DNA from: Burkholderiales bacterium
GTDB lineage: Bacteria > Patescibacteriota > Minisyncoccia > Phycocordibacterales > UBA9973
Assembly: GCA_023701005.1 (NCBI GenBank)
Contig: JAMPXW010000004.1
Location: 1-63,952 of the forward strand
Direction of reading: 5' to 3'
DNA: 63,952 nucleotides
Shown here: positions 1-57,664 of the stretch, in pieces
Layout: each line of letters opens with the position of its first letter
Numbering within the stretch: the first letter of the stretch is position 1
Made by a program: the position numbers and the translations under genes
Notes under the pieces: generated by a model
Database searches by the model: none
Told to the model about the DNA's origin: nothing
Seen by the model: only the letters and a program-made list of their open reading frames with translations

Positions 1-252
1 ATTGGCAACAGAGTGATGACATCTCCAGATGGAATCACATGGACACCTCGCACAAGTGCTGTTGATAATAGCTGGTCTTCTGTAACTTATGGCAATGGAC
101 TCTTTGTAGCAGTTGCTAATTCAGGAACAAACAATAGAGTGATGACATCTCCAGATGGAATCACATGGACACCTCGCACAACCCCAGTAGATAACAGTTG
201 GATTGGTGTAACTTATGGCAATGGACTCTTTGTAGCAGTTTCTGCTACAGGG
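1..252. repeat. 126-bp (42-codon) tandem repeat inside the giant gene, at least 2 units, probably continuing upstream of the window
   Basis: nt 10-54 are identical to 136-180 (45/45). nt 82-114 are identical to 208-240 (33/33). Confidence 0.9.
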
Positions 253-3200
253 ACAAATGATAGAGTGATGACTTTTTCTAGTAATGGTATTTATTACACA
301 TATTCTTATACTGTAAACGCAGCTAATGGAAGTACATACATAGATGGTACAGCGACTGTATCATTATCAACAACTGTGGATGCAGTAGGAAATTCATCAA
401 GTACTCCAACGAATAATACATTTACAATAGACACGGCAGGGCCAACTGTTGCACTTACCTATAGTGCAAATCCAGCACCAACAGGTGCAATGACAATCAC
501 TGCAACATACAGCGAAGCTCCAACGACTACTCCAAACATTTCTATTAATCAACCTGGAACAACAGATATTTCTAATGTTGCAATGAGTGGCAGTGGTACT
601 GTGTACACATATTCTTACACTGTGAATACAGCTAACGGAAGCACATATATAGATGGTACAGCGACTGTGAGTTTGTCGGCAACGACAGATGCAGTAGGTT
701 ATTCTTCTTCAGCACCTACCAATAATACTTTTGCGATAGACACTGTCGGACCAACAGCAACTGTGACTTATTCCATTGATCGTACAGTTAAAGGTGGAGA
801 ATCATTGGTAATCACAGCTACTTTTAATAAAGTTGTGGCAGATGCACCAGTTATGAAAATTGGAATTTCAGGAGCAAATACTGTTTCTGCTACAAATATG
901 ACGAAAGTAGATACTACACATTATACTTACACTCATACAGTCGGAGCAGGAGATGGTGTAGCTACTGTAGCTTTAAGTGTGGGTACAGATTTAGCAGGGA
1001 ATGTCGTCACTTCTTCTCCTACAAGTGGAGCGACTTTTTCTGTAGATAATATTTTGCCTTCTTCGACGATTGATGCTATTTGTTCTACTTTAGGCAATGG
1101 TTGTACGGGTGCAGGTGCATTAGCAGACCCCCAAGAATCATACAGTGTGCAGTCTATAAAAGGTACAGCTTCTGATAATGAAGGTGGTTCAGGATTAAGT
1201 TCAGTAAAAATTTCTATTAAAGACACAACGACGAATCTTTGGTATAGTGGCTCATCTTTTGCTGATGGAACTGAAACATATTTGACAGCCACAGGTACAA
1301 CTGCTTGGAGTTTTAATTCTTCTGCAATGGCATTGACAATTGATCATGTTTATCTGATACATGTTAAATCAATAGATCTTGCGACAAACGAAGAGAGTCC
1401 TGTGCAAGCTCTTAGTTTTAAATTTGTAAATTCTCCACCTACAGTTTCGAATGTAACGGCTTCTCAAGATTCTAGTGGAGTAGTAAATATTTCTTTTGAT
1501 GTATCTGATATAGAATCTTCTCAAACTACAAATTATTTATTTTATGGAATTGGAGCAACATTAAATGGAGCAATAAATAGTTCAGTAAATTCTCTTACGG
1601 TTTCAGATGCTACATATTTATCTAGTTCTGGAAGCATAATTATTGATGATGAAATAATTACTTATACAAGCAAGACTGGTAATGTTCTGAATGGATTAAC
1701 AAGAGGAGCATTAAGTACTACAGCATCTTCTCACAACAATGCTTCTAGCGTCTATGCAAAAGCCACGACTGTCACAGGCACAGGAGTAGGTCTCGTAAAT
1801 GTCGGCACTGGTAAAACGATGGTTTGGACAGCTGGAACAGATATAGATGGTTATGAAAATTTAAGTGAAGTTATAAAAGTAGTTGTCAATGATGGATCTA
1901 CTGGTTCAATGATAGGTTCACTCGTTTCTGCTACGTTTGCTTTTGATACATTGAAGCCGACGGCAGTAGTGACCTTTGACGCAGGGATAGCTGGAGTCAC
2001 AAATAGTGCAACGATAACAATACCAATGCCGGTAGATCAATCTACTGTTGAATATAAAATCAGTGATGATGCTGTGTCTCAGACGAATCCTACAAATAGT
2101 GGTTGGGTCACAATGACGCAAAGTACTACTATACCTTGGACTTTTGATTCTGATGTAGAAGCAAAAACAATTAAATATCAATATCGTGATGCTTATGGAA
2201 ATATAAGTAATGAAGTTTCTATTTCGACCCTCGCTCCAGTAGCAGCTAATTCATTTTTGGTTCAAGATTCTTCGAATATAAATATTTCTACATATGATAT
2301 GTATATTGGTTGGGGAGAGATAGTAGATTTGACAGGATTTTCCGCTTATAAAATAGAATATGCAACTTCTGATGATAATGTGACCTATGGAAGCTATACT
2401 GCGGTTACTGCAGATGGTATGTCTAACCCTACTACAAATTATTATGTTCACAGATTGTTAAATCCAAATAAATATTATAAATATCGTCTTGGTGTCGTCG
2501 GAACAAATGGAAATGTATCTGTGCGAGCAGGTGCACCTATCGTGGCTAAACCAGACGGAGTTCAAAATTACGGAGAAGGAGGAAGTGGGAGTGAGGCAGT
2601 AGTAATAACTGCATCTAAAGTAGAAAATGTAGTTCCTGTTCAAGGAGTAGATAAAAATGTGACGATTACATATCTGTTAACAGATTCATCTTCTGCTTCA
2701 AAAACAAATCCAAGTTACGAAGCTTATTTGTTTTATAATATTGGTGTCACTCTACCTTCAAGTCCGCTTAGTGGAGACAACTTAACTGTCTCGGATGCAT
2801 CTAAATTAAAATCTTCTGGATTTATTCAAATAAATAATGAAATTATTAAATATACAAGCAAGACTGGTAATGTCTTGAGTGGTTTGACTAGAAGTACTTG
2901 GCCTACAAATGGTACGACACGTACTACTAGAACCAACACTACATTTTTCTCAGGAACTCCTGTCTGGATAATGGCTTCTAGCGCTACTCCTGTACAAATA
3001 ACAAATACGAGCATAGTTACTGGGCAAAATGGTTCTATCGCCTGGGATACAAATAGTGAGACTACTTTGTCAGGCTCTGTCTATACCAATGTAGGCATAA
3101 GAGTTTTAGTGCATGACAATCAAACTACAGAATCTTTGTCTACTCAGTCTGATTTTTCTGAAATTGGAATATTAAATACTTTAGATTTGAATTCACCAAC

Positions 3201-6162
3201 TATTTCTTTTAGTACGGCTAGTGCTTCTGGGGTAGAAACGACGAGTCCTGTCACTGCAACTTTAAATTTGTCTCGAGCTTATCCATTAGATGTTTCAATA
3301 AATTATGCTGTCACGGGTACAGCTACTTCGGGTGATGACTATACTTTAGCGAGTGGCACAGAGACGATAACGGCGGGACAGACCACAAAAAGTATAAGTA
3401 TCCCTATTATTAATGATGCCGTTTCAGAATTTGATGAGACTATTATAGTCACAATTTCTAGCCCGACAAATGCGAGGTTGGGAGCTAATACAGTGTTTAC
3501 TTATACTATAGAAGATAATTTATTACCTACTTTGGCATTTAATGCTTTGACTAGTCAAAGTAATGAAGATGTAAATACTGTAAACATCCCAGTTTCTATA
3601 TCAGCTGCATATTCTGATAATGTGACATTCTCTTATGTAGTGACTGGTGGAACAGCAGATGGAGATAGTGTAGATTATCTGCTCGCAAATGGTACGGGCA
3701 CCATAACAGCTGGCAATACTTCTACTGATATTAGTCTGACTATATTTGATGATAGTATTTCTGAATCAACTGAAACGATAATCGTTACGATTTCTAATCC
3801 AACAAATGCTGTATTGGGTTCAAATCAAAATCATGTTTATTCAATATTAGATAATGAAATAGAAGTGACGTCAGTAACAGGAGGAAACATAAAATCTACA
3901 AGTGCTCGTATAACGTGGACAACAGATGATTTTACAAATAGTTTGCTTGAATATGGAATCATAGCTCCGGGGACTGAAGGTGCTTATAATCTTTCAAAAA
4001 CTAATTCAGAAAAAGTTTTGAATCATAGTATTTATATAGATAATCTTACACCCTCTACTACTTATTATTTTAAGACAACATCTGTGAATTTAGATAATGA
4101 AGATACTATAGTAGAATCTTCATTTACTACGACAGCAGGTCCTGTGACAACAGGAGTTTCTTCTAGTGCTGTCACAGACACGACTGCCACTATAACATGG
4201 ACGACGGATATTCCTGCTAGCTCTTATGTAAATTATTCTAAAGATTCTTCTTTAGCAAGTCCTACGAGATTTGGTACAGCAGAGTTAACGACAGATCATT
4301 CTGTCGCATTGACAGGGTTAGATGCTGGTTCAAATTATTATTACTATGTTGATGGAACTGATACAGATGGTAATAATGGAGAAAATGCAAATGCAGGGAG
4401 TTATTATACTTTTACGACAGCTGCTGATCAGACTGCTCCAGTAATTTCTGCAATATCTTCTCCTATTGTCACACCCACTGAAGTTGCTATTGTTTGGACT
4501 ACAAATGAATTAGCCAATGGGAAGGTAATGTATGGAACGACTTCAGGTAGCTATACAAATGAAACTGAATTAATATCTACTCCACTTATAAACCATTTAG
4601 TTACAATAAGTGGTCTTACTAAAGTCACTAAATATTATTATGTAGTTGTGTCTGCTGATTCGAATAGTAATACTACAACATCAGCAGAACAGAATTTTAC
4701 TACAGGAGATGTAGAGACGGTGACAGTAGTGAGCGGTGGTGGCGGAGGTGGAGTGATGGGTGTAGCTCGAGAATTGTATGATATATTGTTGGCTGAAAAT
4801 GCCACTTATAAATCAAAATTAAAAGATTATGATGATAAAATTCCTGTAATTTCAAATATACAGATAAATGATATTACTGCATTTGGAGCCCTTGTTTCAT
4901 TTGAGACGAGTGAAGATACTATCGTATTTATTGATTATGGAAAAGATGAAAGTTATGGATTAATAGCAGCAGACAAAGGATGGTCTAAGATACACACTGT
5001 GAAAATTTATGGATTAAGTTTGGGTACAGAATATAATTTTAAAATTAGTGCCATAGACAGATCAAACGATACTGGATATTCTGATAATCAAAAGTTTACT
5101 ACTAAGTTTTTAACTGAAGATTTGGCCGAATTGAAAAAAATAGAAAATGTAGAACAATTTCAAGATGAAATAGAGTCCACTATTGAGTCGATTCTTCCTT
5201 CTTTGGTTCCTCCTTTTATAGATAAACCAGTTGTTTCTGATATTACAGAAAATAGTGCGACGATTACTTTCCGTACAAACATAAAAGCATATCCTATTGT
5301 TAGTTATGCTGCTGAAAATAAATATGATGCGACAAAGTTGAATCCTTATGACGGAGAAATGTCAGATACTTCAGAGAAAAAAGTTCTGCACACTTTGTCT
5401 TTAGTAAGCCTGGCTCCAAATACTAAATATCATGTTATGGTAAAAGCTTATTCTTTACCACAAGTCGTCGGCAAATCAGAAGATTTTGTCTTTACTACAG
5501 AAGCTTCAAAGATTCAAGGTTCTATATTAGATATCAAAAAAGATTCCTTTACTGTAGTTTGGCAAACCGATGAAGCCACTTCTTCTATTATTGAATATAA
5601 AAATTTAAGTACAGGGAAAATAGCTCGCATGGTAGATGATGTTAAGAATATTTCTCATTCAGTATTGGTAGAAAATTTATCCCCAGGAACTTTGTATCAA
5701 GTAAATATTTCAGGAATAAATGATAAAGGAAATATAGTAGAAGGAAGTGCTCCTTTGAACGTTAAAACTTCAACAGACAACACTCCTCCCGTTATAACAA
5801 ACTTGAAAGTAGATAGTTCTTTGGTTGCAGGCAGAACAGATAAAGTGCAAGTCATTGTATCTTGGCAGACAGATGAAGCTTCTACTTCGACTGTATACTA
5901 TGAAGAGGGTTCTGGATCTTTGAAAGGTTCATTAGCAAACAAACAACAGGATGAAGAACTTACAAAGAATCATGTGGTTATTATGACTTCTTTAAAACCA
6001 GGTACTGTTTATAGATTTACAGTAGAATCGAAAGATGATGCTAATAATATAGTAAAACCTCCAATCCGTACGATAATTACTCCTAAGAAGGCTGAATCTA
6101 TTGTAGATGTTATATTTAAAAACTTTAATGAAACATTTAATTTCATAAATAATGTTCGATAA
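1..6162 (+). CDS. Giant secreted/surface repeat protein, 5' end cut by the window edge (propeller-like 42-aa repeats, Ig-like modules, two Calx-beta-like domains, long FN3-like array)
   Basis: The frame is open from nt 1 (track ORF 13..6162, 2049 aa). It has tandem MTSPDGITWTPRT...YGNGLFVAV units. Two Calx-beta-like segments are present (VTGTATSGDDYT.., VTGGTADGDSVDY.., each ending DETIIVTIS / TETIIVTIS). Many ..ITWTTD.. FN3-like units follow. Confidence 0.85.
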   Translation: MGNRVMTSPDGITWTPRTSAVDNSWSSVTYGNGLFVAVANSGTNNRVMTSPDGITWTPRTTPVDNSWIGVTYGNGLFVAVSATGTNDRVMTFSSNGIYYTYSYTVNAANGSTYIDGTATVSLSTTVDAVGNSSSTPTNNTFTIDTAGPTVALTYSANPAPTGAMTITATYSEAPTTTPNISINQPGTTDISNVAMSGSGTVYTYSYTVNTANGSTYIDGTATVSLSATTDAVGYSSSAPTNNTFAIDTVGPTATVTYSIDRTVKGGESLVITATFNKVVADAPVMKIGISGANTVSATNMTKVDTTHYTYTHTVGAGDGVATVALSVGTDLAGNVVTSSPTSGATFSVDNILPSSTIDAICSTLGNGCTGAGALADPQESYSVQSIKGTASDNEGGSGLSSVKISIKDTTTNLWYSGSSFADGTETYLTATGTTAWSFNSSAMALTIDHVYLIHVKSIDLATNEESPVQALSFKFVNSPPTVSNVTASQDSSGVVNISFDVSDIESSQTTNYLFYGIGATLNGAINSSVNSLTVSDATYLSSSGSIIIDDEIITYTSKTGNVLNGLTRGALSTTASSHNNASSVYAKATTVTGTGVGLVNVGTGKTMVWTAGTDIDGYENLSEVIKVVVNDGSTGSMIGSLVSATFAFDTLKPTAVVTFDAGIAGVTNSATITIPMPVDQSTVEYKISDDAVSQTNPTNSGWVTMTQSTTIPWTFDSDVEAKTIKYQYRDAYGNISNEVSISTLAPVAANSFLVQDSSNINISTYDMYIGWGEIVDLTGFSAYKIEYATSDDNVTYGSYTAVTADGMSNPTTNYYVHRLLNPNKYYKYRLGVVGTNGNVSVRAGAPIVAKPDGVQNYGEGGSGSEAVVITASKVENVVPVQGVDKNVTITYLLTDSSSASKTNPSYEAYLFYNIGVTLPSSPLSGDNLTVSDASKLKSSGFIQINNEIIKYTSKTGNVLSGLTRSTWPTNGTTRTTRTNTTFFSGTPVWIMASSATPVQITNTSIVTGQNGSIAWDTNSETTLSGSVYTNVGIRVLVHDNQTTESLSTQSDFSEIGILNTLDLNSPTISFSTASASGVETTSPVTATLNLSRAYPLDVSINYAVTGTATSGDDYTLASGTETITAGQTTKSISIPIINDAVSEFDETIIVTISSPTNARLGANTVFTYTIEDNLLPTLAFNALTSQSNEDVNTVNIPVSISAAYSDNVTFSYVVTGGTADGDSVDYLLANGTGTITAGNTSTDISLTIFDDSISESTETIIVTISNPTNAVLGSNQNHVYSILDNEIEVTSVTGGNIKSTSARITWTTDDFTNSLLEYGIIAPGTEGAYNLSKTNSEKVLNHSIYIDNLTPSTTYYFKTTSVNLDNEDTIVESSFTTTAGPVTTGVSSSAVTDTTATITWTTDIPASSYVNYSKDSSLASPTRFGTAELTTDHSVALTGLDAGSNYYYYVDGTDTDGNNGENANAGSYYTFTTAADQTAPVISAISSPIVTPTEVAIVWTTNELANGKVMYGTTSGSYTNETELISTPLINHLVTISGLTKVTKYYYVVVSADSNSNTTTSAEQNFTTGDVETVTVVSGGGGGGVMGVARELYDILLAENATYKSKLKDYDDKIPVISNIQINDITAFGALVSFETSEDTIVFIDYGKDESYGLIAADKGWSKIHTVKIYGLSLGTEYNFKISAIDRSNDTGYSDNQKFTTKFLTEDLAELKKIENVEQFQDEIESTIESILPSLVPPFIDKPVVSDITENSATITFRTNIKAYPIVSYAAENKYDATKLNPYDGEMSDTSEKKVLHTLSLVSLAPNTKYHVMVKAYSLPQVVGKSEDFVFTTEASKIQGSILDIKKDSFTVVWQTDEATSSIIEYKNLSTGKIARMVDDVKNISHSVLVENLSPGTLYQVNISGINDKGNIVEGSAPLNVKTSTDNTPPVITNLKVDSSLVAGRTDKVQVIVSWQTDEASTSTVYYEEGSGSLKGSLANKQQDEELTKNHVVIMTSLKPGTVYRFTVESKDDANNIVKPPIRTIITPKKAESIVDVIFKNFNETFNFINNVR

Positions 6163-9208: not shown

Positions 9209-11074
9209 ATGGATTTAAAATACATTAGAAATTTTTCTATCATAGCTCACATAGACCACGGCAAGAGTACTTTGGCAGATAGAATGTTAGAAATAACTCA
9301 TACCATAGAAGCACGTAAAATGCGTGCGCAATTTCTTGATTCAATGGAACTTGAGAGAGAAAGAGGCATAACCATAAAAATGCAACCTGTTCGCATGGAA
9401 TTCTCCCCGAATTCCCCGAAGCCTGGCTTAGGGGAGTTTCCCCTAAGCCAGGCTTCGGGAAAGGAAGAAACATATGTTCTAAATCTTATAGATACTCCAG
9501 GACATATTGATTTTTCTTATGAAGTTTCTCGTGCTTTGAAAGCAGTTGAAGGTTCTATCTTGCTTGTAGATGCCACACAAGGAGTGCAAGCTCAAACACT
9601 CACTACATTAGAAATGGCAAAAGAAAGTGGGCTCGTTATTATACCTGTTTTATCAAAAGTCGATTCACCGCTTGCCAGAGTGGAAGAAATAAAAATGGAA
9701 GTGGCTGTATTGCTCGACATAGATCCAGATTCTATTTTAGAAGTTTCTGGCAAGACGGGTTATGGTGTAGAAAATTTATTGGAAGAAATAATAAAACAAG
9801 TTCCACCTCCTTTGTTTTTTGAAGAAGTTAAAGATAGCGCTCAAGCATTAGTTTTTGATTTCAAATATGATAGTCATAGGGGAGTTATCGTCTATGTCAG
9901 ACTTTTTGATGGGTCTATAAAAAAGGGTGACAATCTTATTTTTTCTGTATCAGGTGAGAAATTTATAGCATTGGAGGTTGGTATATTTTCTCCAGAAGAA
10001 AATCCTAAACCATCCATTAATACTGGAGAGATAGGTTATATTGTCACAGGCATAAAAAAACCAGGTATAGCTTCTGTTGGAGATACAATTACTTTTAATA
10101 AAAAACCTTTACCTGCTTTGCCAGGATACATGAATCCAAAGCCAGTAGTTTGGGCTTCTGTCTACCCAGAAGATGCTGATGATTTTCCTAATTTAAAACT
10201 CGCATTAGGGCGTTTAAAGCTTTCTGATTCGGCTTTTTCTTATGAAGAAGAATCTTCAGGGACTCTTGGTAAAGGTTTTCGTTGTGGATTTTTAGGTATG
10301 CTCCATTTAGAAATAATTACAGAAAGATTAAAAAGAGAGTTTAATTTGCATTTAGTGGTGACGATGCCTTCGATCACATATAAAGTGATTTTAAGAAATA
10401 ATAAAGAACAAATCATTTATTCTCCACATTTTTTTCCGGATGATAGTCAGATTATTAAAATTTATGAACCGTGGGTTTCTATAAATATCATTACTCCTCA
10501 GATATATACTAGCGTGCTTATGCCATTTCTTTTCGATCATGAGGCAGAAGTTCATACTACAGATAATTTTGGAGACAATAGATCGGTAATACATTTAGAT
10601 ATGCCATTACGAGAACTAATGCGTAATTTCTTTGATGATTTAAAAAGTATTACTTCTGGTTATGCTTCTATATCTTATGAAATAGGAGAATATAGAGAGG
10701 CAGATGTTGTAAGATTAGATATATTAGTCGCAGATGAACCAATGATGGCTTTTTGTAGGGTTGTTTCAAGAAGGAAAGTAGAAGAAGAGGCCCGAGCTCA
10801 GGTAGATAGATTAAAAAAGGTTATATCACGTCAACAATTTGCTTTTAAAATACAAGGTAAGGCCTTGGGTAGGATAATAGCTTCTGAGAGTGTATCTGCT
10901 TTCCGTAAAGATGTTTTGATGCATGGCAGTAAAGTAGTCGGAGGGGGAGATGTAAGTAGAAAAAAGAAACTTCTTGAAAAACAAAAGAGAGGTAAAGCCA
11001 GAATGAAAGAAAATGCAAAAGTAAACATCACACAAGATGTGTTTTTGAAAATGATGAGGACAGGAGATAATTAA
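9209..11074 (+). CDS. lepA: Translation elongation factor 4 (LepA)
   Basis: IRNFSIIAHIDHGKSTLADR, DTPGHIDF and the characteristic LepA C-terminal domain. It contains an in-frame palindromic insert (next feature). Confidence 0.95.
   Translation: MDLKYIRNFSIIAHIDHGKSTLADRMLEITHTIEARKMRAQFLDSMELERERGITIKMQPVRMEFSPNSPKPGLGEFPLSQASGKEETYVLNLIDTPGHIDFSYEVSRALKAVEGSILLVDATQGVQAQTLTTLEMAKESGLVIIPVLSKVDSPLARVEEIKMEVAVLLDIDPDSILEVSGKTGYGVENLLEEIIKQVPPPLFFEEVKDSAQALVFDFKYDSHRGVIVYVRLFDGSIKKGDNLIFSVSGEKFIALEVGIFSPEENPKPSINTGEIGYIVTGIKKPGIASVGDTITFNKKPLPALPGYMNPKPVVWASVYPEDADDFPNLKLALGRLKLSDSAFSYEEESSGTLGKGFRCGFLGMLHLEIITERLKREFNLHLVVTMPSITYKVILRNNKEQIIYSPHFFPDDSQIIKIYEPWVSINIITPQIYTSVLMPFLFDHEAEVHTTDNFGDNRSVIHLDMPLRELMRNFFDDLKSITSGYASISYEIGEYREADVVRLDILVADEPMMAFCRVVSRRKVEEEARAQVDRLKKVISRQQFAFKIQGKALGRIIASESVSAFRKDVLMHGSKVVGGGDVSRKKKLLEKQKRGKARMKENAKVNITQDVFLKMMRTGDN
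9415..9459. repeat. Perfect 20-bp-arm GC-rich palindrome inserted in frame in lepA
   Basis: CCCGAAGCCTGGCTTAGGGG-aGTTT-CCCCTAAGCCAGGCTTCGGG. It is related to the gatB copy at 55704-55750. Confidence 0.9.
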
Positions 11075-12561: not shown

Positions 12562-13839
12562 ATGGAGAAACATTGGATTAAAAATTTTGATAAATTAGCA
12601 ATTACCGAAAATCGCAAAATGGCTTTAGAGATTATAGAAGCAGGGCTTGATGCGATAAATACAGAAAAAGTTATTGAATCTTCTATCTCAATGATGGGGA
12701 ATACTTTAGTTATAAAAGGTAAAAGTTTTAATTTGTCTAAATATAAAAATATAAAGATAGTAGGATTTGGTAAATCTTCTTGTGATGCTGCTTTGGCCTT
12801 AGAAAATATTTTAGGAGATAAAATAAAAGAAGGAGCTGTTGTCGGACTTCATAAGATTGATTGCAAATATATTGAAACGTTTGAAGGGACTCATCCTAGA
12901 CCTTCAGAAAAGAATATTGAAGCGGGACAAAGGATATATGATATAGCAAATGATGCAGGTGAAGATGATCTTATTATTGCGATAATATCTGGTGGTGGAT
13001 CAGCATTACTTTGTTATCCAGAAACTGAGTATAAAGAAGGAGCTAAGCTTTATGAGTCTTTTTTGAAAACGGGTAAGACTATTTCAGAGATGAATACAGT
13101 AAGAAAACATCTTTCTTTATTGAAAGGAGGAGGTTTGGCTAAAGTGGCTTATCCTGCGACTGTTGTTGGGCTTATATTTTCAGATGTTCCTGGAGATTTG
13201 TTCTCAGATGTAGCTTCTGGTCCCACCTACAAAGACAATACGACCTTAGCTGATGCCAAACAAATAATAATCAATAATAAATTGGGTGAATTTATTTTGA
13301 ATGAGACACCCAAGGATGATAAGTATTTTGAAAAAGTTTACAATTTTGTATTAGTTTCAAATAAAACAGCAGCAAAGAAAATGGCAGAAAAAGCTGAGGA
13401 ATTTAATTTTGATGTGAATGTTGTTTCTACTGATTTATATTATGAAATAAATAAATCACTTGAAAAGATATTTTTATGTAAAAAAGAGAATTCTGTTATT
13501 TTAGCAGCAGGTGAATCTCGTGTTGTTGTAGAAAAAAGTGGAGGGAAAGGTGGTAGGAATCTGCATACAGCTCTTTTAGCTGTGAAAAATAAGATTGCAG
13601 ATAGTGAACATTCTGTTTTTATTTCTTTTGCTTCTGATGGCATGGACAATAGTGACGCAGCAGGTGCTGTGGTAGATAAATATACCTTAGAAAAAATAAA
13701 GAATTTAGGTATAGATATAAATGATCACTTGGAACGTTTTGATTCGTATCCAGTATTTGAAAAAACAGGAGATATTATTATTACTGGCCCCACAGGAGCT
13801 AATGTGTCTGATCTTATGATACTTTTAACTAAAAAATAA
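12562..13839 (+). CDS. Glycerate kinase, MOFRL family (DUF4147 + MOFRL)
   Basis: GFGKSS.., IISGGGSALL, GGKGGRN and ITGPTGANVSD resemble TM1585-type glycerate 2-kinases. Confidence 0.75.
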   Translation: MEKHWIKNFDKLAITENRKMALEIIEAGLDAINTEKVIESSISMMGNTLVIKGKSFNLSKYKNIKIVGFGKSSCDAALALENILGDKIKEGAVVGLHKIDCKYIETFEGTHPRPSEKNIEAGQRIYDIANDAGEDDLIIAIISGGGSALLCYPETEYKEGAKLYESFLKTGKTISEMNTVRKHLSLLKGGGLAKVAYPATVVGLIFSDVPGDLFSDVASGPTYKDNTTLADAKQIIINNKLGEFILNETPKDDKYFEKVYNFVLVSNKTAAKKMAEKAEEFNFDVNVVSTDLYYEINKSLEKIFLCKKENSVILAAGESRVVVEKSGGKGGRNLHTALLAVKNKIADSEHSVFISFASDGMDNSDAAGAVVDKYTLEKIKNLGIDINDHLERFDSYPVFEKTGDIIITGPTGANVSDLMILLTKK

Positions 13840-37790: not shown

Positions 37791-38237
37791 ATGCTTATAG
37801 GCGAATACATACATACAATAGATGAGAAAAATAGAGTTTCTTTGCCTGTAAAATTTCGAAAGGAACTTGGCAAGAAAATTATTATTACTCCAGGGCTTGA
37901 TCAATGTCTGTTTATTTTTACGAGTGAAGAATGGAAAAAAGTTTCTAAGAGACTTTCAGATTCTGATTCCGATCTTTCATTCTTGAAGGCTGACAAGAGA
38001 AGTTTTAACAGATTTATGTTTGGACGAGCAGCAGAAGTTGAAGTAGATAGTATAGGAAGAATTTTGATTCCAGATTTTTTGAAAGAAAGAATCAAGTTAG
38101 AGGGGAAAGCTGCGATCATTGGAGTAGAAGACAGAGTTGAGATCTGGAATGACAAAACATGGATGCAATATAGAGATGTAGTAGAGAAGCAAGCTGATCA
38201 ACTAGCAGAAAAATTAAGCAAGAAAGAAGATGATTAA
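37791..38237 (+). CDS. mraZ: Transcriptional regulator MraZ
   Basis: Start taken at MLIGEYIHTIDEKNRVSLP. Two SpoVT/AbrB-like halves (DEKNRVSLP, DSIGRILIP). Confidence 0.92.
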   Translation: MLIGEYIHTIDEKNRVSLPVKFRKELGKKIIITPGLDQCLFIFTSEEWKKVSKRLSDSDSDLSFLKADKRSFNRFMFGRAAEVEVDSIGRILIPDFLKERIKLEGKAAIIGVEDRVEIWNDKTWMQYRDVVEKQADQLAEKLSKKEDD

Positions 38238-39126
38238 CAAGAATACAGAGAGTGTACATAAGACAGTTCTTTTAAAAGAAACAATAGAAGGTTTGAATTT
38301 AAACAAAGATCAATCTTTGGTCATCGATGCCACGTTTGGTGGAGGTGGTCATAGTAAAGAAATTTTAGAAGAGTACAAGAATGCAAAAATAATTGCATTT
38401 GATCAAGACAAAGGAGCTTGGGACAGAGCCAAAGATAAATTTAAAGGTTTAGAAAAAAGAATTACTTTTTTAAATCTAAATTTTAGAGAGATAAATAGTA
38501 AAGAAAAAGTTGATGGAATTATTTTTGATTTAGGTTTAAGTTCAGATCAATTAGAAAATTCCGGACGAGGATTTTCTTTCATGAAAGATGAACCGTTGCT
38601 AATGACGATGAAAGAAAATCCTCTTCCAGAAGACCTGACAGCCATGGACATAGTAAATAATTGGGGAGAAGAAAATTTGGCAGATATTATTTATGGTTAT
38701 GGCGAAGAAAGATTTTCTAGAAGAATAGCTAAAGCGATAGTCGAGTTTAGAAAGAACGAAGAGATAAATTCAACTTTTACTTTAGTAAAAATTATCGAAA
38801 ATAGTGTTCCAGGGGCTTATAAAAAAGGAAGAATACATTGTGCCACGAAGACCTTTCAAGCCCTTAGAATAGCCGTTAACGATGAATTAGGGGCATTAGA
38901 AGAAGGTTTAAACAAAGGTTTTGAAGTTTTAAAGAATGGAGGCAGAATGTCAGTGATTTCTTTTCATAGTTTGGAAGACAGGGTAGTGAAAAGATTCTTT
39001 AAAAAATTAGAAAAAGATAAAAAAGCCATATTAGTAAATAAAAAGATTATCACAGCGACAAATGAAGAAATAAAAAATAACCCAAGATCAAGAAGTGCAA
39101 AATTAAGAATTTTAGAAAAAATATAA
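38230..39126 (+). CDS. rsmH: 16S rRNA (cytosine1402-N4)-methyltransferase RsmH
   Basis: HKTVLLKE, DATFGGGGHS, FDLGLSS and SFHSLEDR motifs. Confidence 0.95.
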   Translation: MINKNTESVHKTVLLKETIEGLNLNKDQSLVIDATFGGGGHSKEILEEYKNAKIIAFDQDKGAWDRAKDKFKGLEKRITFLNLNFREINSKEKVDGIIFDLGLSSDQLENSGRGFSFMKDEPLLMTMKENPLPEDLTAMDIVNNWGEENLADIIYGYGEERFSRRIAKAIVEFRKNEEINSTFTLVKIIENSVPGAYKKGRIHCATKTFQALRIAVNDELGALEEGLNKGFEVLKNGGRMSVISFHSLEDRVVKRFFKKLEKDKKAILVNKKIITATNEEIKNNPRSRSAKLRILEKI

Positions 39127-41183: not shown

Positions 41184-42479
41184 ATGAAAGAAACTTTAAA
41201 AAAAATCATTACATATATTTTACGAATAGAGTCTCGTTTAGTTCTTTGGAGATATAAACCTAAAGTAGTAGCTATTACGGGTTCTGTAGGCAAAACTTCC
41301 ACTAAAGATGCTGTTTTTGCTGTTATATCTGAAATATCTTATGTTCGTAAAAGTGAAAAGAGTTACAACAGTGAGATAGGCTTACCACTTACTATTTTGG
41401 GATGTCCAAATGGTTGGAGTAATCCTTATATATGGTTTTTGAATATATTGAAAGGTTTATGGTTATTTTTATATCCTCATAAATATCCTAAATGGCTTGT
41501 GCTTGAAGTAGGCATAGGAAAAGCAGGAGATATGAAACGCACAGCATCTTGGTTGAAAAGTGATGTTGTCATCATCACTGCTATAGGAGAAACTCCATCT
41601 CATATAGAATTTTTTGATTCTCATAAACATTTAGTAGAAGAAAAAAGTCAGCTTATAAAAACTTTAAAAAAGAATGGCCTTTTGATTTTAAATAATGATG
41701 ACGATCATGTGATGAGCATGAAAACAAAAACTAAAAATATCACCGTGACTTATGGTTTCCAAGAAGGAGCAGACTTGCGAGGTTCTTCAGATAGCATTTT
41801 TTATAACGACAGGGGAGTTCCAGAAGGTTTAATATTTAGAGTAGATGGAGCGGGTAGTAGTTTGCCTGTAGTTATAGAAGGAGTTTTTGGTAGGAATCAC
41901 ATTTATGCTTCTCTCGGAGCTTTGGCTCTCGCTTCAGGTCTTAAATTAAATATGCTCGATGCTATTCATAAATTAAAAAATTATAATGTTCCTCCAGGAC
42001 GTATGCGCTTATTGAAAGGGATAAAAGATTCTTTTATTATTGATGACACTTACAATTCTTCTCCTTTTGCTTGTGAATCTGCATTGAAGACTTTAGGTGA
42101 AGTTAAATTAGTGGGGAGAAAGATTGCAGTTTTGGGAGATATGTTGGAGCTCGGTAAACATACAGAAGAAGCTCACAAAAATATTGGTAAATTTGTAAAA
42201 GAAAATGCTAATGTTCTTATTGTCGTCGGTCCTAGATCTCAAAAGATAAAAGAAGGAGCCATAGAAGCTGGCATGGATATGGAAAGTGTTTTTGATTTTT
42301 CTAGTTCACGTAATGCGGGAGAATTTCTTGATGATTTTATTAAAAAAGATGATTTGATTTTGGTTAAAGGTTCGCAGGGGATGAGAATGGAGCACACAGT
42401 GGAAGCTATTTTAGAAGATAAAAAAAATAAAAAAGAATTACTCGTTCGTCAGGATGATGAGTGGAAAAATAAAATATAA
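41184..42479 (+). CDS. murF: UDP-N-acetylmuramoyl-tripeptide--D-alanyl-D-alanine ligase
   Basis: ITGSVGKTSTKD, DDTYNSSP and LGDMLELG motifs. Confidence 0.9.
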   Translation: MKETLKKIITYILRIESRLVLWRYKPKVVAITGSVGKTSTKDAVFAVISEISYVRKSEKSYNSEIGLPLTILGCPNGWSNPYIWFLNILKGLWLFLYPHKYPKWLVLEVGIGKAGDMKRTASWLKSDVVIITAIGETPSHIEFFDSHKHLVEEKSQLIKTLKKNGLLILNNDDDHVMSMKTKTKNITVTYGFQEGADLRGSSDSIFYNDRGVPEGLIFRVDGAGSSLPVVIEGVFGRNHIYASLGALALASGLKLNMLDAIHKLKNYNVPPGRMRLLKGIKDSFIIDDTYNSSPFACESALKTLGEVKLVGRKIAVLGDMLELGKHTEEAHKNIGKFVKENANVLIVVGPRSQKIKEGAIEAGMDMESVFDFSSSRNAGEFLDDFIKKDDLILVKGSQGMRMEHTVEAILEDKKNKKELLVRQDDEWKNKI

Positions 42480-44913: not shown

Positions 44914-45960
44914 CTATGTCTCTGAGCTAGGTTTTTTGTGGTGTTTAATTGATTCTTCTTCTATAAAAAACAAATTCCTGTGCGGTCTCGAACAGGCTAC
45001 ATAGAGTTTATTTTTTGTACCAGAAACTAACTTGCTAAGTTTTTTATCTTTGAAATGTTTCATTGTAGTTTTATTAAGTACTACACAAACATCCTCAAAT
45101 TTATTTTCTCCCTTAGAATCTCCCCAATTTCTTGAGAGGCATTTATATTTACTACTTTCTCTATAAAATAATTTGACAACATTATTGTTACTAAAAATTT
45201 CCTCAATTATTTTTGGATCAGAAATAAATTCAACAGTAGACATATTGTTTTTGTGTGAGTATATTTCTATCTTAAGATTTTCAGTAATAAAATTGCAGAT
45301 TGTAGGAGTACATCTCCAGCTTTTATTTAAATGTTCCGTGTCTGGTTTTATACCAAGTTGTTCGAAGTTTTTAATATATTCTTTATAGTCATTATGTAAA
45401 TCATTATTTGTCGTACCATCTCTACTAGTATCGAAGGTGTGTTGGTAGAAATCACCAACCAGTTTTATTTCAAGCTTTGCCCTTACAAGACTTTTTAGTA
45501 AATCGAAGTCATGTCCAGCAAAATCTTGAATTTCATCAATATATAAACAGTCATAGTATTTTTCTAATCTTTCGTTTATGTCATCCAATACATTTAATTC
45601 TTGTAATAGTTTGGCAATTCTATTGTGATACAATCTTCTTCCTTCTGTTAGATAAAAAGAAAGATCACTCCTCTTTTTTTTGAGAGTATATTCGGGTGGA
45701 AAATCCCAAAATATACCTTTGACTTTTAACTTATATGATAAAAACGGTTTAAAACAAAAGCCATATAAAAATGGAAAATATGAGTATAATTGTATATTAT
45801 CTGGGAAATATCCAAATTTTTCTATAATACCATCTCTTAAGTTTTTAGTATTACTTTTAGTGTAAGTAATTAGCAAAAATCTCTTTTCTAAATTTAAATT
45901 ATCTATTATTAGGCTAGTCTTACCAGAACCAGCAACCGCTAAGATTATTTTTTTATCCAT
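44914..45960 (-). CDS. Compact UvrD-like SF1 helicase (GajB-like)
   Basis: Motif I AVAGSGKTS, motif II YIDEIQDF, motif III VGDFYQ, motif IV SWRC, motif VI LYVACSRPHRNL. 348 aa. Overlaps the upstream gene by 16 nt. Confidence 0.8.
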   Translation of the reverse strand: MDKKIILAVAGSGKTSLIIDNLNLEKRFLLITYTKSNTKNLRDGIIEKFGYFPDNIQLYSYFPFLYGFCFKPFLSYKLKVKGIFWDFPPEYTLKKKRSDLSFYLTEGRRLYHNRIAKLLQELNVLDDINERLEKYYDCLYIDEIQDFAGHDFDLLKSLVRAKLEIKLVGDFYQHTFDTSRDGTTNNDLHNDYKEYIKNFEQLGIKPDTEHLNKSWRCTPTICNFITENLKIEIYSHKNNMSTVEFISDPKIIEEIFSNNNVVKLFYRESSKYKCLSRNWGDSKGENKFEDVCVVLNKTTMKHFKDKKLSKLVSGTKNKLYVACSRPHRNLFFIEEESIKHHKKPSSET

Positions 45961-47519
45961 TGAATTGCGTCCACAATATATTGTGGGGGTTTTATTTCAG
46001 TTGATTTTTTTTCAAGCAACTCGAAAGCACAATTTGTTTTATTGGAAAGCATATAATCTTGTACTGTCAGGGTTCTTCTGCCTGCTTTAAATAATTCGTC
46101 GCAAATTTTTGAATTATTTTGGTACATTGAAATTTCAAAAGTTGGTATTTTATCATCGGTTTCAGAAAATATTCCCATATTTGAGTCTTTATAGCTCGAA
46201 TACCTATCAACACAATTTTCTTTATAGTTTCCGTCGTTGTCTGTTACCACAGCTGTTTTTATTTTTAATTCTTTTGCAATATTAAAATAATGCTTGAAGC
46301 TTGTACCTCCCACTGAAATCACATGTATGTCAGAATTTTCAAGCTTATTGGAGGTTACGTTTGTGTAAAAAGATTCCATTAACATAAACTCGGAATCACC
46401 TTCTACGAGAATCACTTTTTTGGAAAATATAAATTCAAGAACATTATTGTCAGGTGCTTTCATAAAAAATTTTGCCGTATCTTTTGGTAGTTGATCAAGT
46501 AGGATGGGAAGGGTACTATTACTATTCAGCAAAATTGATTTTCTTAGATCAAGTCTTGAGCTGATTAAATTGCTATGCGTGGTAATAAATAATTGTTTAT
46601 TTTCTGATTTGTTTATTGTATCAATTAATTTTTTCATATTGATATGACTTAGGTGATTTTCAGGTTCTTCAATTAGAATAACGTCAAGTTCTTTTTGATT
46701 TTTTTGAAGTGCAAACTCTGTTTTTATAAAACATTGTCTTCCTTTCCCTCGATTTACCAAATCGATGTCTCCTTCTTTTATTGTTAGATCAGTTTCCAAA
46801 TTTGCCCTTGAGTTGTTTCTAATAGAGAAAGAATATTCATCAGAACTTACTCTTGAATTAAGGTCACCCAATACACTATCTTTAAAATTCTCCTTGTGTT
46901 TCCTGTATTCATTTTGATGCCTATTTTTTTCTGAGTCGTTAATAATAGTATTATTATAAAGAGTTTTGATGTAAGATTTCGTTGCATATTCATTATCAAT
47001 TTCTGTGTTGTCTAAAAAAAGGTGTCTCATGTATTTTCTATAACTAGTGTAACTACTACCCTCGAAAGTTTTGAATGTTATTGAGTAAAACTCAAACGGG
47101 AAGTTGCTTTCTTTTTGTTGTAGAATATCTTTGATTTCTTTACTCAGATCATCCCTAGGTTCACATCTAAGCGCTAATCCGTGTGTTTTAACCTCATCTG
47201 AATTATTTTTGCCATCTAGATCTTTATTTGTTTGGTCATTGAAATATAATTCAATATAAAGAATTGGAAGGTCTTCATATTTTTTATTTGAAGCTAAAAA
47301 ATTTTGTATTACTTCACTATTAAACATATTGTCCAAACCACAGCTTTCTACTTTACTTCTACTTCCACTTAATACAAGATCTATAGCAGACAAAATTGTA
47401 CTTTTTCCTGCTTCGTTATCTCCAATTAATAGGTTAATTGAATCATTAAACTTAACCTCGAATTCTTTGAATCGTTTAAAATTCTTTATTTTAATTTTCT
47501 CAATTATCTTCCTAGTCAT
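45945..47519 (-). CDS. OLD-family ABC-type ATPase with C-terminal TOPRIM nuclease domain (GajA-like, class 2 OLD)
   Basis: Walker A GDNEAGKST, signature-like NRGKGRQ, Walker B ILIEEPENHLS, TOPRIM ILVEGDSE ... AVVTDNDG. Confidence 0.8.
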   Translation of the reverse strand: MTRKIIEKIKIKNFKRFKEFEVKFNDSINLLIGDNEAGKSTILSAIDLVLSGSRSKVESCGLDNMFNSEVIQNFLASNKKYEDLPILYIELYFNDQTNKDLDGKNNSDEVKTHGLALRCEPRDDLSKEIKDILQQKESNFPFEFYSITFKTFEGSSYTSYRKYMRHLFLDNTEIDNEYATKSYIKTLYNNTIINDSEKNRHQNEYRKHKENFKDSVLGDLNSRVSSDEYSFSIRNNSRANLETDLTIKEGDIDLVNRGKGRQCFIKTEFALQKNQKELDVILIEEPENHLSHINMKKLIDTINKSENKQLFITTHSNLISSRLDLRKSILLNSNSTLPILLDQLPKDTAKFFMKAPDNNVLEFIFSKKVILVEGDSEFMLMESFYTNVTSNKLENSDIHVISVGGTSFKHYFNIAKELKIKTAVVTDNDGNYKENCVDRYSSYKDSNMGIFSETDDKIPTFEISMYQNNSKICDELFKAGRRTLTVQDYMLSNKTNCAFELLEKKSTEIKPPQYIVDAIQWIKK

Positions 47520-55308: not shown

Positions 55309-56796
55309 ATGGAAAAGAAATATTATCCTACAATTGGTTTGGAGATACATGCGGAATTGAAAACAAATACAAAGATGTTTTGTAGTTGTAAAAATGATCC
55401 TGATGAAGAAAATCCTAATGTGAATATTTGCCCTGTGTGTATGGCACATCCAGGAGCATTACCTGTAATAAACAAGAAGGCTATTGAAAATGTTATAAAA
55501 GTTGGTTTAGCTATCGGAGGTAATATTGCTGATTTTACAGAATTTGATCGTAAAAATTATTTTTATCCAGACATACCAAAAGGTTATCAGATTTCTCAAT
55601 ATAAATATCCTATAGTTTCTGGAGGCAATCTGGCAGATTTTGATGTAACACGTGTGCATTTGGAAGAAGACACCGCAAATAATAAACACAGAGACGGAGC
55701 TCCCCCCGAAGCCCAGCTTAGGGGAAATTCCCCTAAGCTGGGCTTCGGGGAAGATGGATACTCTTTGATTGATTTCAATCGTGCAGGGGTTCCTCTTATG
55801 GAGCTCGTCACAGAGCCTATAACTTTTGAAAATACTGAAAGTGCAGCCAAGGCAGCATCTTTATTTGCAAAAGAACTTCAACTTATTTTGTGGTATTTGG
55901 GTGTATCTGAAGCAAATATGGAAAAAGGAGAAATGCGAGTAGAGGCAAATATTTCAGCATCAGACGATAAAAGTAAATTAGGCACAAAAGTTGAAGTTAA
56001 GAATTTGAATTCTTTCAAGAGTGTTGAAAAAGCTATTAAATTTGAATTAGATAGGATGATAGATCTTTTGGAAAATAATAAAGGAGAAGAGATAATTCAA
56101 GAGACTCGTGGATGGGATGAAAGTAAACAAAAAACATTTTCACAAAGAAAAAAGGAATCTAGTCATGATTATAGATATTTTCCAGAACCAGATTTACCAA
56201 AAATGAAATTGCATGAAGTTTTTAATTTAGAAGAAATGAAAAAGGTTTTACCAGAGTTGCCACAAGAAAAAAGATTGAGATACAAAAATGATTTTGGAAT
56301 TAAAGATGAAGATATAGAAAGTTATATAAATGACAAAGATCTCGGTGCATGGTTTGAAGAGATAGCAAAAATATTAAATGATAAAGACAAAATAAAATTA
56401 ACATCAAATTATATTACATCAGATTATTTAGGTCTTAAAAAAACTCAGCCGGATGCCAAGTGCCCGTCTGCAGAAAATTTTGCAGAACTCATGAATATGG
56501 TAGCAGGTAATAAAATATCTTCTCGTGTGGCAAAAGATATATTGGCTAAGATTGTATTGAAAGACGAATCTTCTCTTCTTATTGCAGAAAGAGAAGGATT
56601 GTTGCAGAAAAATGATGAAGGAGAAGTCAAAGTCATTGTGCAAAAGATAATAAATGAGAATCCTGATGTTGTGGCTATATATAAAGGTGGAAAAGAAAAT
56701 GCTCTAATGTCTTTAGTTGGTAAGGTTATAAAGGAAAGTAAAGGTAGTGCTAATCCACAAATAGTTATTAAAATTTTGAAAGAAGAATTACAATAA
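55309..56796 (+). CDS. gatB: Asp/Glu-tRNA amidotransferase subunit B
   Basis: IGLEIHAELKT..KMFCSC, CPVCMAHPGALP, HLEEDT and DFNRAGVPLMELV motifs. Contains an in-frame palindromic insert. Confidence 0.95.
   Translation: MEKKYYPTIGLEIHAELKTNTKMFCSCKNDPDEENPNVNICPVCMAHPGALPVINKKAIENVIKVGLAIGGNIADFTEFDRKNYFYPDIPKGYQISQYKYPIVSGGNLADFDVTRVHLEEDTANNKHRDGAPPEAQLRGNSPKLGFGEDGYSLIDFNRAGVPLMELVTEPITFENTESAAKAASLFAKELQLILWYLGVSEANMEKGEMRVEANISASDDKSKLGTKVEVKNLNSFKSVEKAIKFELDRMIDLLENNKGEEIIQETRGWDESKQKTFSQRKKESSHDYRYFPEPDLPKMKLHEVFNLEEMKKVLPELPQEKRLRYKNDFGIKDEDIESYINDKDLGAWFEEIAKILNDKDKIKLTSNYITSDYLGLKKTQPDAKCPSAENFAELMNMVAGNKISSRVAKDILAKIVLKDESSLLIAEREGLLQKNDEGEVKVIVQKIINENPDVVAIYKGGKENALMSLVGKVIKESKGSANPQIVIKILKEELQ
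55704..55750. repeat. 47-bp perfect GC-rich palindrome inserted in frame in gatB (same family as the lepA copy)
   Basis: CCCCGAAGCCCAGCTTAGGGGAA-A-TTCCCCTAAGCTGGGCTTCGGGG. Confidence 0.9.
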
Positions 56797-56800
56797 ATAA

Positions 56801-57664
56801 ATGAAATTTAATTTTGAAAATATAAAAAAAGTAGTTAAAACAGGAACTATTTTGGGTGGTGCTGCTTTGATACCATTTTCTTCAACAATTGAAAAAGGGA
56901 ATAATAATTCTGAGAAAGAATTGTCAGAATTAAATAAAGAAGAAATTAGCCATACTATAAATGTTGGAGAGTTTAAAGATTATGCTAAATTGCCTACCAT
57001 AAAAGGATTTTATGAAGCAGAAGAGAAATATCAAGGAGGCAAAGAAAATGTAATCTTATTACAAGATATTTCTAATTTAGAAAATCAATTTTCCAAATTA
57101 TCAAAAGGGAAGGCAGATATAGAACCTGGAAGTTTTGCTATCATTTCTCGTCTAGATTTAGCAGGCAAAGGAATAGAAGATGAATTTAGTGAAAAAATTA
57201 AAAGTTATAGAGGTGAAGATGTTACAAGTTTTTCGCCACTGAATAATGCATTAATCACTCGCGAGGTATCTGGTATTGTGGAAGATTCAACAATTAATAA
57301 TCAAAATAGTAATCATAATACAAAAATTTTCAGTACGGACCTTAATTCAAGAAAAGAAGTAAATAAATTTAGTGAACATATTAATATTAGTGATTATAAA
57401 TATAATAGGCCAGCTTATTATTTTGTCATAGCTCAAGAACATGACGAGAATTCTATTACGTTAAAATTAAAAACAATTTCTTCTAAGGATGAAAAAGTGA
57501 TAGACGAATTTTCTTTTAAGGAAGAATTACCAGATGGTGATCGATTTGGTCAGATTTTTGATGATTTAGTAAAAAAAGATATAGCACCGAAATTGGCTCA
57601 AAAAATTCAGGAAAAAATTCATGAATATAAATTAGATCAAAATAATGATGGAAAAGGATATTAA
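56801..57664 (+). CDS. Hypothetical secreted/membrane-anchored protein
   Basis: 287-aa ORF tightly packed after gatB, with an N-terminal hydrophobic segment and no recognised domain. Confidence 0.6.
   Translation: MKFNFENIKKVVKTGTILGGAALIPFSSTIEKGNNNSEKELSELNKEEISHTINVGEFKDYAKLPTIKGFYEAEEKYQGGKENVILLQDISNLENQFSKLSKGKADIEPGSFAIISRLDLAGKGIEDEFSEKIKSYRGEDVTSFSPLNNALITREVSGIVEDSTINNQNSNHNTKIFSTDLNSRKEVNKFSEHINISDYKYNRPAYYFVIAQEHDENSITLKLKTISSKDEKVIDEFSFKEELPDGDRFGQIFDDLVKKDIAPKLAQKIQEKIHEYKLDQNNDGKGY

Follow-up and report, generated by a model that had tools for sequence, protein, structure and literature searches.

The gatB gene on a 63,952-nt stretch of a Patescibacteria genome (contig JAMPXW010000004.1 of assembly GCA_023701005.1; 64 kb, hereafter the window, to which element coordinates refer) contains a perfect, GC-rich palindrome at 55704–55750, a sister copy of which lies in lepA at 9412–9462. 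We found that both belong to a dispersed, near-identical repeat that occupies unlinked genes, is in frame when genic, is polymorphic in its presence, and keeps its symmetry despite sequence drift. We consider it probable that this repeat is a selfish, non-autonomous coding palindrome, similar in kind to REPINs and to the Rickettsia palindromic elements (RPEs), and that conversion or copying templated by the hairpin maintains the identity of its arms.

A coding palindrome and its copies in unlinked genes

The gatB copy has the form CCCCGAAGCCCAGCTTAGGGGAA-A-TTCCCCTAAGCTGGGCTTCGGGG, in which two arms of 23 nt, 100% complementary to each other, flank a 1-nt centre, as the initial annotation of the window had described. 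It is the window copy of a ~51-nt element, TTCCCCGAAGCCCAGCTTAGGGGAA-A-TTCCCCTAAGCTGGGCTTCGGGGAA, with the outermost TT of the left arm changed to CC; the complete form comprises 25 + 1 + 25 = 51 nt, or 17 codons. By itself, the left arm (55704–55724) forms an imperfect 8-bp hairpin, CCCCGAAG-CCCAG-CTTAGGGG, and the right arm (55730–55750) is an inverted copy of this unit, CCCCTAAG-CTGGG-CTTCGGGG; a gatB arm equals its own reverse complement with 3 mismatches. Because each arm is itself an imperfect hairpin, the whole element is a doublet of ~21-nt imperfect hairpin units in inverted orientation, folding into one long hairpin.

In the lepA copy, arms of 24 nt enclose a 3-nt centre and are 96% complementary, with one mismatch. 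This copy is abutted on its upstream side by a direct partial repeat, TCCCCGAA (9404–9411, + strand), which matches the first bases of the element; stubs resembling this repeat also precede a gatA copy in L020 and a lepA copy in L107 (L numbers denote related loci). Relative to lepA, the gatB copy is changed at two adjacent base pairs on both arms (left arm, GCCTGGC in lepA and GCCCAGC in gatB; right arm, GCCAGGC and GCTGGGC), so the paired differences reported initially are real, and the loops differ as well. The core pattern occurs twice in the window against an expectation of 0.01 from dinucleotide shuffles, the hairpins have folding energies as RNA of −50 to −57 kcal/mol (z = −7.5 to −10), and GC content is 64% in the element against ~32% in the window.

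These are the only two copies within the 64 kb, and the initial annotation had allowed that they might be a lone pair produced by recent gene conversion; many further copies in related genomes show otherwise. In a scan for the core pattern across one genome per species, a Candidatus Nomurabacteria metagenome-assembled genome (MAG), GCA_026395895.1, contained the same element seven times on six contigs. Its gatB gene (L109) carries an eighth copy with a longer loop, and a variant with compensated arm changes sits just upstream of a pilC-like gene, giving at least nine copies (eight near-identical and one variant). The eight in-frame copies lie in murD-like, murE-like, gatA, rsmI-like, fmt, lepA, and gatB genes. 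In a second genome, GCA_023267215.1, the lepA site occupied in the window is likewise filled by the element, and a MOFRL (glycerate kinase) gene holds a sequence variant. The named close relatives of the window GatB and LepA are all Nomurabacteria, Paceibacteria, or Patescibacteria, save one distant LepA match labelled Bacteroidota, and we read the element family as specific to Nomurabacteria/Paceibacteria within the candidate phyla radiation (CPR). GC-rich Actinobacteria, Clostridia, and other genomes also gave loose core-pattern matches; the flanks of these are unrelated, and we excluded them from the family as different hairpins. A scan of viral contigs for the full palindrome gave no match. 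We also discarded an assembly artefact as the source of the palindromes: hairpins at the gatB site occur in dozens of independent assemblies (NCBI, JGI, ENA, Logan).

Other palindromes were seen in the related genomes. A 51-nt in-frame palindrome (TTCCAAGGGCATCCCTTGGA...) lies in a FAD-oxidase gene (L113:12790–12840). At one site in the MOFRL gene, two genomes carry in-frame hairpins, a 46-nt doublet in one (L107:14283–14328) and a 29-nt single hairpin in the other (L118:14375–14403); the window MOFRL gene (12562–13839) contains no palindrome. A second, shorter hairpin family, CCTCCCCCTTAnTAAGGGGGAGG, with 13-bp arms, occurs in a related MAG (L003:5661–5687 and L006:6430–6456), one copy inside lepA, and was absent when searched for in the window.

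Both window hosts are intact. The gatB gene (55309–56796, + strand; 495 aa) remains open through the element and scores 521 bits against the NCBIfam GatB equivalog model, and lepA (9209–11074, + strand; 621 aa) scores 720 bits against NCBIfam LepA. The initial annotation had stated that both are essential translation genes; their identities hold, while the link to translation appears incidental, since murD-like, murE-like, MOFRL, and FAD-oxidase genes host the element elsewhere. In GatB the element falls between HLEEDTANNKH and DGYSLIDFNRAG, in agreement with the position first given for it. There, 23 codons, RDGAPPEAQLRGNSPKLGFGEDG (55690–55758, + strand), stand in place of the 4-codon DRGD loop of uninterrupted GatB, a net gain of 19 codons. 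Alignment gave the same 19 residues (495 aa against 476 aa in empty relatives), close to the ~18 given in the initial annotation. The segment has no counterpart in solved GatB structures and aligns as an insertion relative to that of T. maritima (3AL0). In an AlphaFold model of GatB built from 40 homologues (mean pLDDT, the predicted confidence score, 82), residues 123–156 fall below a pLDDT of 50 and have no secondary structure, flanked by confident strands at 111–120 and 162–168; in this model, the GatB insert looks to be in a disordered, permissive surface loop, where the encoded peptide would be compatible with the fold. The lepA element occupies a turn between ITIKMQPVRMEF and YVLNLIDTPGH. 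By alignment, this site lies between two conserved segments directly before the DTPGH motif, and it too looks like a permissive surface loop.

Presence, absence, and turnover at fixed sites

To follow the element through orthologues, we aligned 120 GatB homologues (73–84% identical) and collected the gatB-site DNA of 80 metagenomic gatB loci and 8 further contigs. Uninterrupted GatB alleles, of 475–476 aa, read KH-DRGD-[FY]SL, and many other GatBs carry inserts of 8–20 residues, with very different peptides, at exactly that point. Around 20 of the inserts are strong GC-rich hairpins, perfect or near-perfect (−35 to −58 kcal/mol); empty sites are unstructured (−5 to −13 kcal/mol). Homology to the window element is plain in a large subset of the inserts, which have common ends TTCCCCGA...TCGGGGAA and a common tip GGGGAAATTCCCC. 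Within this subset the inner 5–10 base pairs differ and are perfectly compensated, as in L110 (TTCCCCGAAGTTAGACTTAAGGGAGATTCCCTTAAGTCTAACTTCGGGGAA); further homologous cases are L111, L112, L113, L114, L115, L116, L036, L076, and L032. The gatB-site copies share one phase and measure 51 or 57 nt, and most keep the right-hand junction (element, xG, YSL).

Filling of this site is polymorphic. GatB alleles of the TANNKH clade divide into 66 that are empty (57 of them DRGD), 47 that are filled (at least 17 extra residues), and 44 intermediates, some of which are visibly half-elements (L050 compared with L051, and L030). Some 40% of close relatives lack the insert; among more distant GatBs, most are uninterrupted and a few bear unrelated inserts at the site (L104, L085, L095). 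Because it is absent from outgroup GatBs and from ~40% of close relatives, the element is, judged from these alignments, not ancestral to GatB, contrary to the possibility, raised initially, of a segment shared by the GatB of many phyla. A single ancestral insertion defining a clade was likewise unsupported: filled and empty alleles interleave in a neighbour-joining tree, albeit a poorly resolved one, and no GatB column outside the site splits them (the best is 71% correct against a 58% baseline).

The lepA site behaves similarly. Empty alleles prevail among relatives there, with inserts of various kinds occupying the same turn in a minority. In the relative closest to the window (L106; LepA 95% identical in amino acids, 85% in nucleotides over 5.4 kb of synteny), the site holds only a single 21-nt unit, CCCCGCCTTGATAAGGAGGGG, and L118 has two small tandem hairpins, along with a single-unit hairpin at the MOFRL site where L107 carries the doublet. 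GCA_023267215.1 has a filled lepA and an empty gatB on one and the same contig. Presence and absence, half-elements, and single units together show that the gatB and lepA sites turn over quickly.

The host genes themselves give conflicting relationships. When we compared window positions 9209–11074 and 55309–56796 with L107/L117 and L003/L109, the window LepA was nearer to GCA_023267215.1 (88% amino acid identity) than to GCA_026395895.1 (not among the 120 best matches; 69% nucleotide identity), whereas GatB was nearer to GCA_026395895.1 (84% amino acid identity) than to GCA_023267215.1 (79%). Because the two proteins disagree on the nearest relative of the window, the comparison hints at recombination between lineages.

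We sought an empty counterpart of the murE copy but obtained none, because the murE-like host in L010 and the window open reading frame (ORF) at 41184–42479 are only 22% identical and not orthologous. A second gatB hairpin site was seen in relatives near residues 385–390, where perfect GC-rich hairpins with 13–14-bp arms and differing sequences occur (L109:7370–7398, L110:4837–4863, L112:2262–2290, L117:11079–11107); the window has only a decayed version at this position, CAGCCGGATGCCAAGTGCCCGTCTGCAG (56440–56480).

A rival explanation holds that the palindromes are immobile, and that they arise and grow in place within permissive loops when replication switches template, from hairpin to inverted duplication. 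This would be a quirk of how these bacteria maintain their DNA, comparable to the coding palindromes of Nematomorpha mitochondria; such a conversion or template-switching model is discussed in PMC6649704. Several observations fit: arms are perfect in nearly every genome, single units occur where others carry doublets (lepA in L106; MOFRL in L118 compared with L107), single-unit hairpins occupy the second gatB site in L109, L110, L112, and L117, and many unrelated hairpin sequences are found at the first. The same 47–51-nt sequence nevertheless recurs in seven unlinked genes of one genome, and in both gatB and lepA of the window. Because identical copies sit in unlinked genes, local genesis would explain the maintenance and diversification of the palindromes but not their dispersal, and we judge it quite unlikely.

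Covariation of the arms and the encoded peptides

The initial annotation proposed that the conserved property of the element is its hairpin and not its peptide, and suggested a search for covariation among copies. We aligned 22 copies from at least 13 genomes and scored the pairs of the long hairpin. Standard pairs filled 96% of 505 pair cells, compared with 81% in column shuffles and 31–64% when the partner was slid by 1–3 columns; 14 of the 23 pairs had changed on both sides (71 cells), and none of 500 shuffles reached any covariation measure. Covariation is therefore strong. The base (CCCC) and tip (GGGG-loop-CCCC) of the stem are conserved, and its middle is variable. Departures from Watson-Crick pairing are rare, and wobble is not preferred among them: the stem core holds ~5 G-U cells and ~8 cells with other mismatches. 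RNA-level selection normally tolerates G-U pairs, and strict Watson-Crick symmetry is what a DNA-level process is expected to produce. With no preference for wobble pairs and with polymorphic presence, this comparative evidence favours a DNA-level explanation of the covariation over a functional RNA.

We weighed against this the view that the element is a functional, cis-acting mRNA or DNA hairpin selected at defined sites in housekeeping genes, where its possible roles include a programmed ribosome pause for co-translational folding, an RNase III, processing, or stability site, and a target for proteins that bind cruciforms or hairpins. In favour of this view, copies from at least 13 genomes covary strongly at an orthologous site, the gatB position and phase are identical in every case, the stem base and tip are conserved, and the RNA fold is very stable. 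Moreover, the element is 66–96% identical to the window copy in genomes whose gatB is 73–80% identical in nucleotides, which is not unusual conservation, yet it means that the element diverges no faster than its constrained host gene. On the other hand, the gatB insert is missing from ~40% of close relatives and from all distant ones, one genome is filled at lepA and empty at gatB, identical sequence lies in functionally unrelated genes, half-elements and decayed remnants occur, wobble pairs are not favoured over other mismatches, and the element matches no Rfam family. Taken together, we regard a selected hairpin as unlikely.

Known RNA classes were also considered. With Rfam 15, only tRNAs in the window passed their gathering scores, and the best match at the element was a miRNA-precursor model (26.6 bits against a gathering score of 100); we rejected tRNA-related and known-RNA-family readings on these scans. 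An intrinsic terminator was rejected as well, as the main hairpin was not called by a terminator scan and is followed by AAGATGG, with no T-tract.

The translations bear on what is conserved. The gatB copy reads ..PPEAQLRGNSPKLGFGE.. and the lepA copy reads ..SPKPGLGEFPLSQASGK.., the other open frame, so the difference in frame noted initially is confirmed. The element is stop-free in two of three frames on either strand, and the third holds TAG and TAA; because the element is a palindrome, both strands encode one shared pair of peptides, FPEAQLRGxSPKLGFGE and SPKPSLGExPLSWASGK. An antisense ORF of 84 aa (55596–55850, − strand) reads the palindrome as SPKPSLGEFPLSWASG, its other open frame, and exists because the palindrome is open in this second frame as well; the antisense ORFs were rightly taken at the outset for by-products, as two of the three frames of each strand are open across the palindrome and yield the same two peptides. 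Outside the palindrome, the antisense ORF found no real relatives, ankyrin repeats being its sole matches. An exhaustive phmmer search with the antisense translation likewise returned only eukaryote-type ankyrin repeats (GRTPLSWAAGNGH), through a chance likeness to PLSWASG, and was uninformative because the library consisted of 50%-identity representatives. A protein search with a 53-aa composite of the element-encoded peptides found no candidate protein sharing words with it.

All genic copies keep their ORF open, have a length that is a multiple of three, and use only the two stop-free frames. Because it is always open and a multiple of three, in what is modelled as a disordered surface loop, the insert is probably translated. 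This regularity bears on whether the hairpin might instead be removed from the RNA, as a religated mini-intron, or bypassed by the ribosome in the manner of the 'byp' elements of Magnusiomyces mitochondria. GC-rich palindromes in the genes of an AT-rich genome do recall mitochondrial GC clusters and byps (PMC6649704), and the fold is a very stable one. An element that is removed or bypassed would be indifferent to frame and length, yet every genic copy is a stop-free multiple of three and never uses the stop-containing third frame, which makes removal or bypass very improbable.

An adaptive protein loop, selected for a role in GatCAB or LepA, would account for intact ORFs and for an insert in a surface loop. 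It fits poorly with the same DNA giving two different peptides in different hosts, with GatB-site peptides that differ almost wholly between relatives while DNA symmetry is kept, and with the many relatives that have no insert. Two frames are used, the arms covary, and the peptides turn over; these data tell strongly against function at the protein level, to which we attach hardly any credence. The use of two frames in different genes, the divergence of GatB-site peptides, and the perfect, compensated hairpins all support the original proposal that the hairpin is what is conserved.

Origin of the element and its relation to known repeats

How could such palindromes persist and spread? As selfish coding palindromes in gene-dense genomes, the surviving copies would be those that landed in frame in permissive surface loops of housekeeping proteins, where they would be transcribed and translated as a functionless Pro/Gly/Ser-rich loop, with gatB and lepA as the examples in the window. 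Arm identity may be maintained by arm-to-arm correction on hairpin extrusion (template switching at quasi-palindromes) or, alternatively, by a copying route in which the intermediate is a single-stranded hairpin, the model put forward for REPINs (PMC3116915). A change in one arm would then be either reverted or copied to the other, yielding 'compensatory' evolution without RNA function. Spread within a genome would involve a putative trans-acting activity or gene conversion, and spread between related lineages would occur along with host-gene flanks.

Several results weigh against this explanation. Comparison of the flanks of 10 copies revealed nothing in common beyond a T...A pair extending the palindrome, with no target-site duplication and no conserved motif, so that the dispersal of identical copies is our sole ground for mobility. 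Copies are few (at least nine in one MAG, two in 64 kb here). No transposase, RAYT, or insertion sequence (IS) was found by Pfam among ~55 window proteins, neither a RAYT nor another transposase appears in the gene tables of related loci, and tblastn with an IS200 TnpA query, a weak probe, returned nothing from 1.34 Mb of these loci. The conserved stem base and tip could equally reflect function. Finally, the same gatB codon and phase are used in many lineages with different inner sequences and with empty alleles interleaved. Simple random insertion fails to account for this pattern, which needs site-specific insertion, long persistence with loss, or exchange of alleles by recombination; site-specific insertion may perhaps have been into pre-existing hairpins, for which the TCCCCGAA stub at 9404–9411 and the gatA stub in L020 can be compared.

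A bolder proposal is that a dedicated hairpin-recognising system in Paceibacteria homes ~51-nt palindromes into the same codons of gatB, lepA, and MOFRL genes across many lineages and keeps their arms perfect, or else that the palindromes are RNA or DNA control points in essential genes. Sequence-specific recognition, if it exists, would be reflected in the conserved stem base and tip, in the single phase at each site, and in the interleaving of filled with uniform empty alleles. We give this proposal a small but appreciable chance of being correct and continue to favour a selfish coding palindrome.

Among known repeats, RPEs are inserted in frame in Rickettsia housekeeping genes as translational fusions judged compatible with the fold (PMC10969869), and are reported to lose repeat identity over time (PMC6649704). 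The present element resembles them as a short palindromic repeat dispersed in a small AT-rich genome, in frame in many unrelated housekeeping genes (gatB, lepA, gatA, murD-like, murE-like, rsmI-like, and fmt), and RPEs too are regarded as selfish. RPEs, however, measure ~100–150 bp and form Rickettsia families, whereas the element described here is 47–51 nt, GC-rich, and perfect in its arms, has a CPR host, and recurs at the same codon in orthologues with its inner sequence changed on both arms. We set it apart from RPE families by its length, three times shorter, and by its host, which belongs to another phylum.

REPINs are inverted REP doublets with compensatory changes, grouped in lineage-specific families, and their singlets appear remnant-like (PMC3116915). 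The likeness in architecture is close: two imperfect-palindrome units, inverted, form one long hairpin with compensatory changes, and a singlet occurs at the lepA site of L106. REPINs differ in being extragenic, present in hundreds per genome, ~70–110 bp long, and tied to a single-copy RAYT transposase. The element described here is intragenic, probably translated, few in copies, and ~51 nt long, with both window copies and eight of nine in GCA_026395895.1 inside ORFs. REPs carry GTAG or CGTC tags (PMC3733652); the unit CCCCGAAGCCCAGCTTAGGGG has neither a GTAG nor a CGTC tag.

Nematomorpha mitochondria harbour perfect coding palindromes that are gained and lost between species and are attributed to conversion or template switching rather than function (PMC6649704). 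Perfect inverted repeats within translated genes, with gains and losses, are common to both cases. The Nematomorpha palindromes, unlike ours, overlap conserved protein sequence, reach 284 bp, and include no dispersed family of a single sequence, whereas here a loop insert recurs in several genes. Yeast mitochondria offer a further parallel in their GC clusters and byps, mobile palindromes of high GC content that enter the coding regions of a genome very rich in AT. A byp breaks the reading frame and is passed over through translational bypassing, whereas the present element always preserves the frame. Bacterial MITEs (miniature transposable elements with inverted repeats; Correia, ERIC, BOX, and others) are small non-autonomous repeats that sometimes form in-frame gene fusions (PMC10969869). 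MITEs consist of terminal inverted repeats around an internal region and have target-site duplications and a parent IS; here the inverted repeat is the whole element, no duplication is visible, and no IS was found in the Pfam scan of the window or, with the TnpA query, in the tblastn search of related loci. The element is thus closest to RPEs in behaviour and to REPINs in architecture and is a member of neither. Our full-text literature searches turned up no description of such elements in CPR bacteria.

Other features of these genomes were recorded alongside the palindromes. On the − strand at 44914–47519, the window has two adjacent genes, one for an OLD-like TOPRIM/AAA_15 ATPase of 524 aa and the other for a UvrD-like helicase of 348 aa; this combination of domains is that of Gabija-type anti-phage systems, here in a CPR genome. 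An AT-rich inverted repeat (38559–38631; 24-nt arms, 92% complementary, 25 nt apart) lies inside rsmH/mraW (38230–39126). Between gatB and a class II fructose-bisphosphate aldolase gene stands a 287-aa ORF with no Pfam match (56801–57664, + strand); the aldolase gene follows gatB directly in L109, L112, L114, L115, and L117. A 2049-aa ORF at the start of the window (13–6162, + strand), with Calx-beta, fibronectin type III, and purple-acid-phosphatase N-terminal domains, probably encodes a giant surface protein. Upstream of lepA in L118, a class I aminoacyl-tRNA synthetase gene (2827–5943; leuS-like by its domains) encodes 1038 aa, against ~800, and contains two internal domains that are endonuclease-like, DUF559 and MTES_1575; here an insertion of another kind has entered a housekeeping gene.

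The mobile DNA of CPR bacteria, or Patescibacteria, whose genomes are tiny and densely packed with genes, has been little characterised. For selfish DNA, residence of a repeat family within essential reading frames would be a way to survive with almost no intergenic space, and the only other such bacterial system known to us is that of the Rickettsia RPEs. With its fixed site, perfect arms, and drifting sequence, the orthologous GatB series is an unusually clean natural experiment, one that allows maintenance of a palindrome at the DNA level, by template switching or arm conversion, to be told apart from selection on RNA structure. It also counsels caution in the use of covariation as evidence of functional RNA, as the very strong covariation seen here probably needs no RNA function. 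In CPR bacteria, such inserts explain length variation and odd loops in housekeeping proteins, as well as spurious antisense ORFs in genome annotation.

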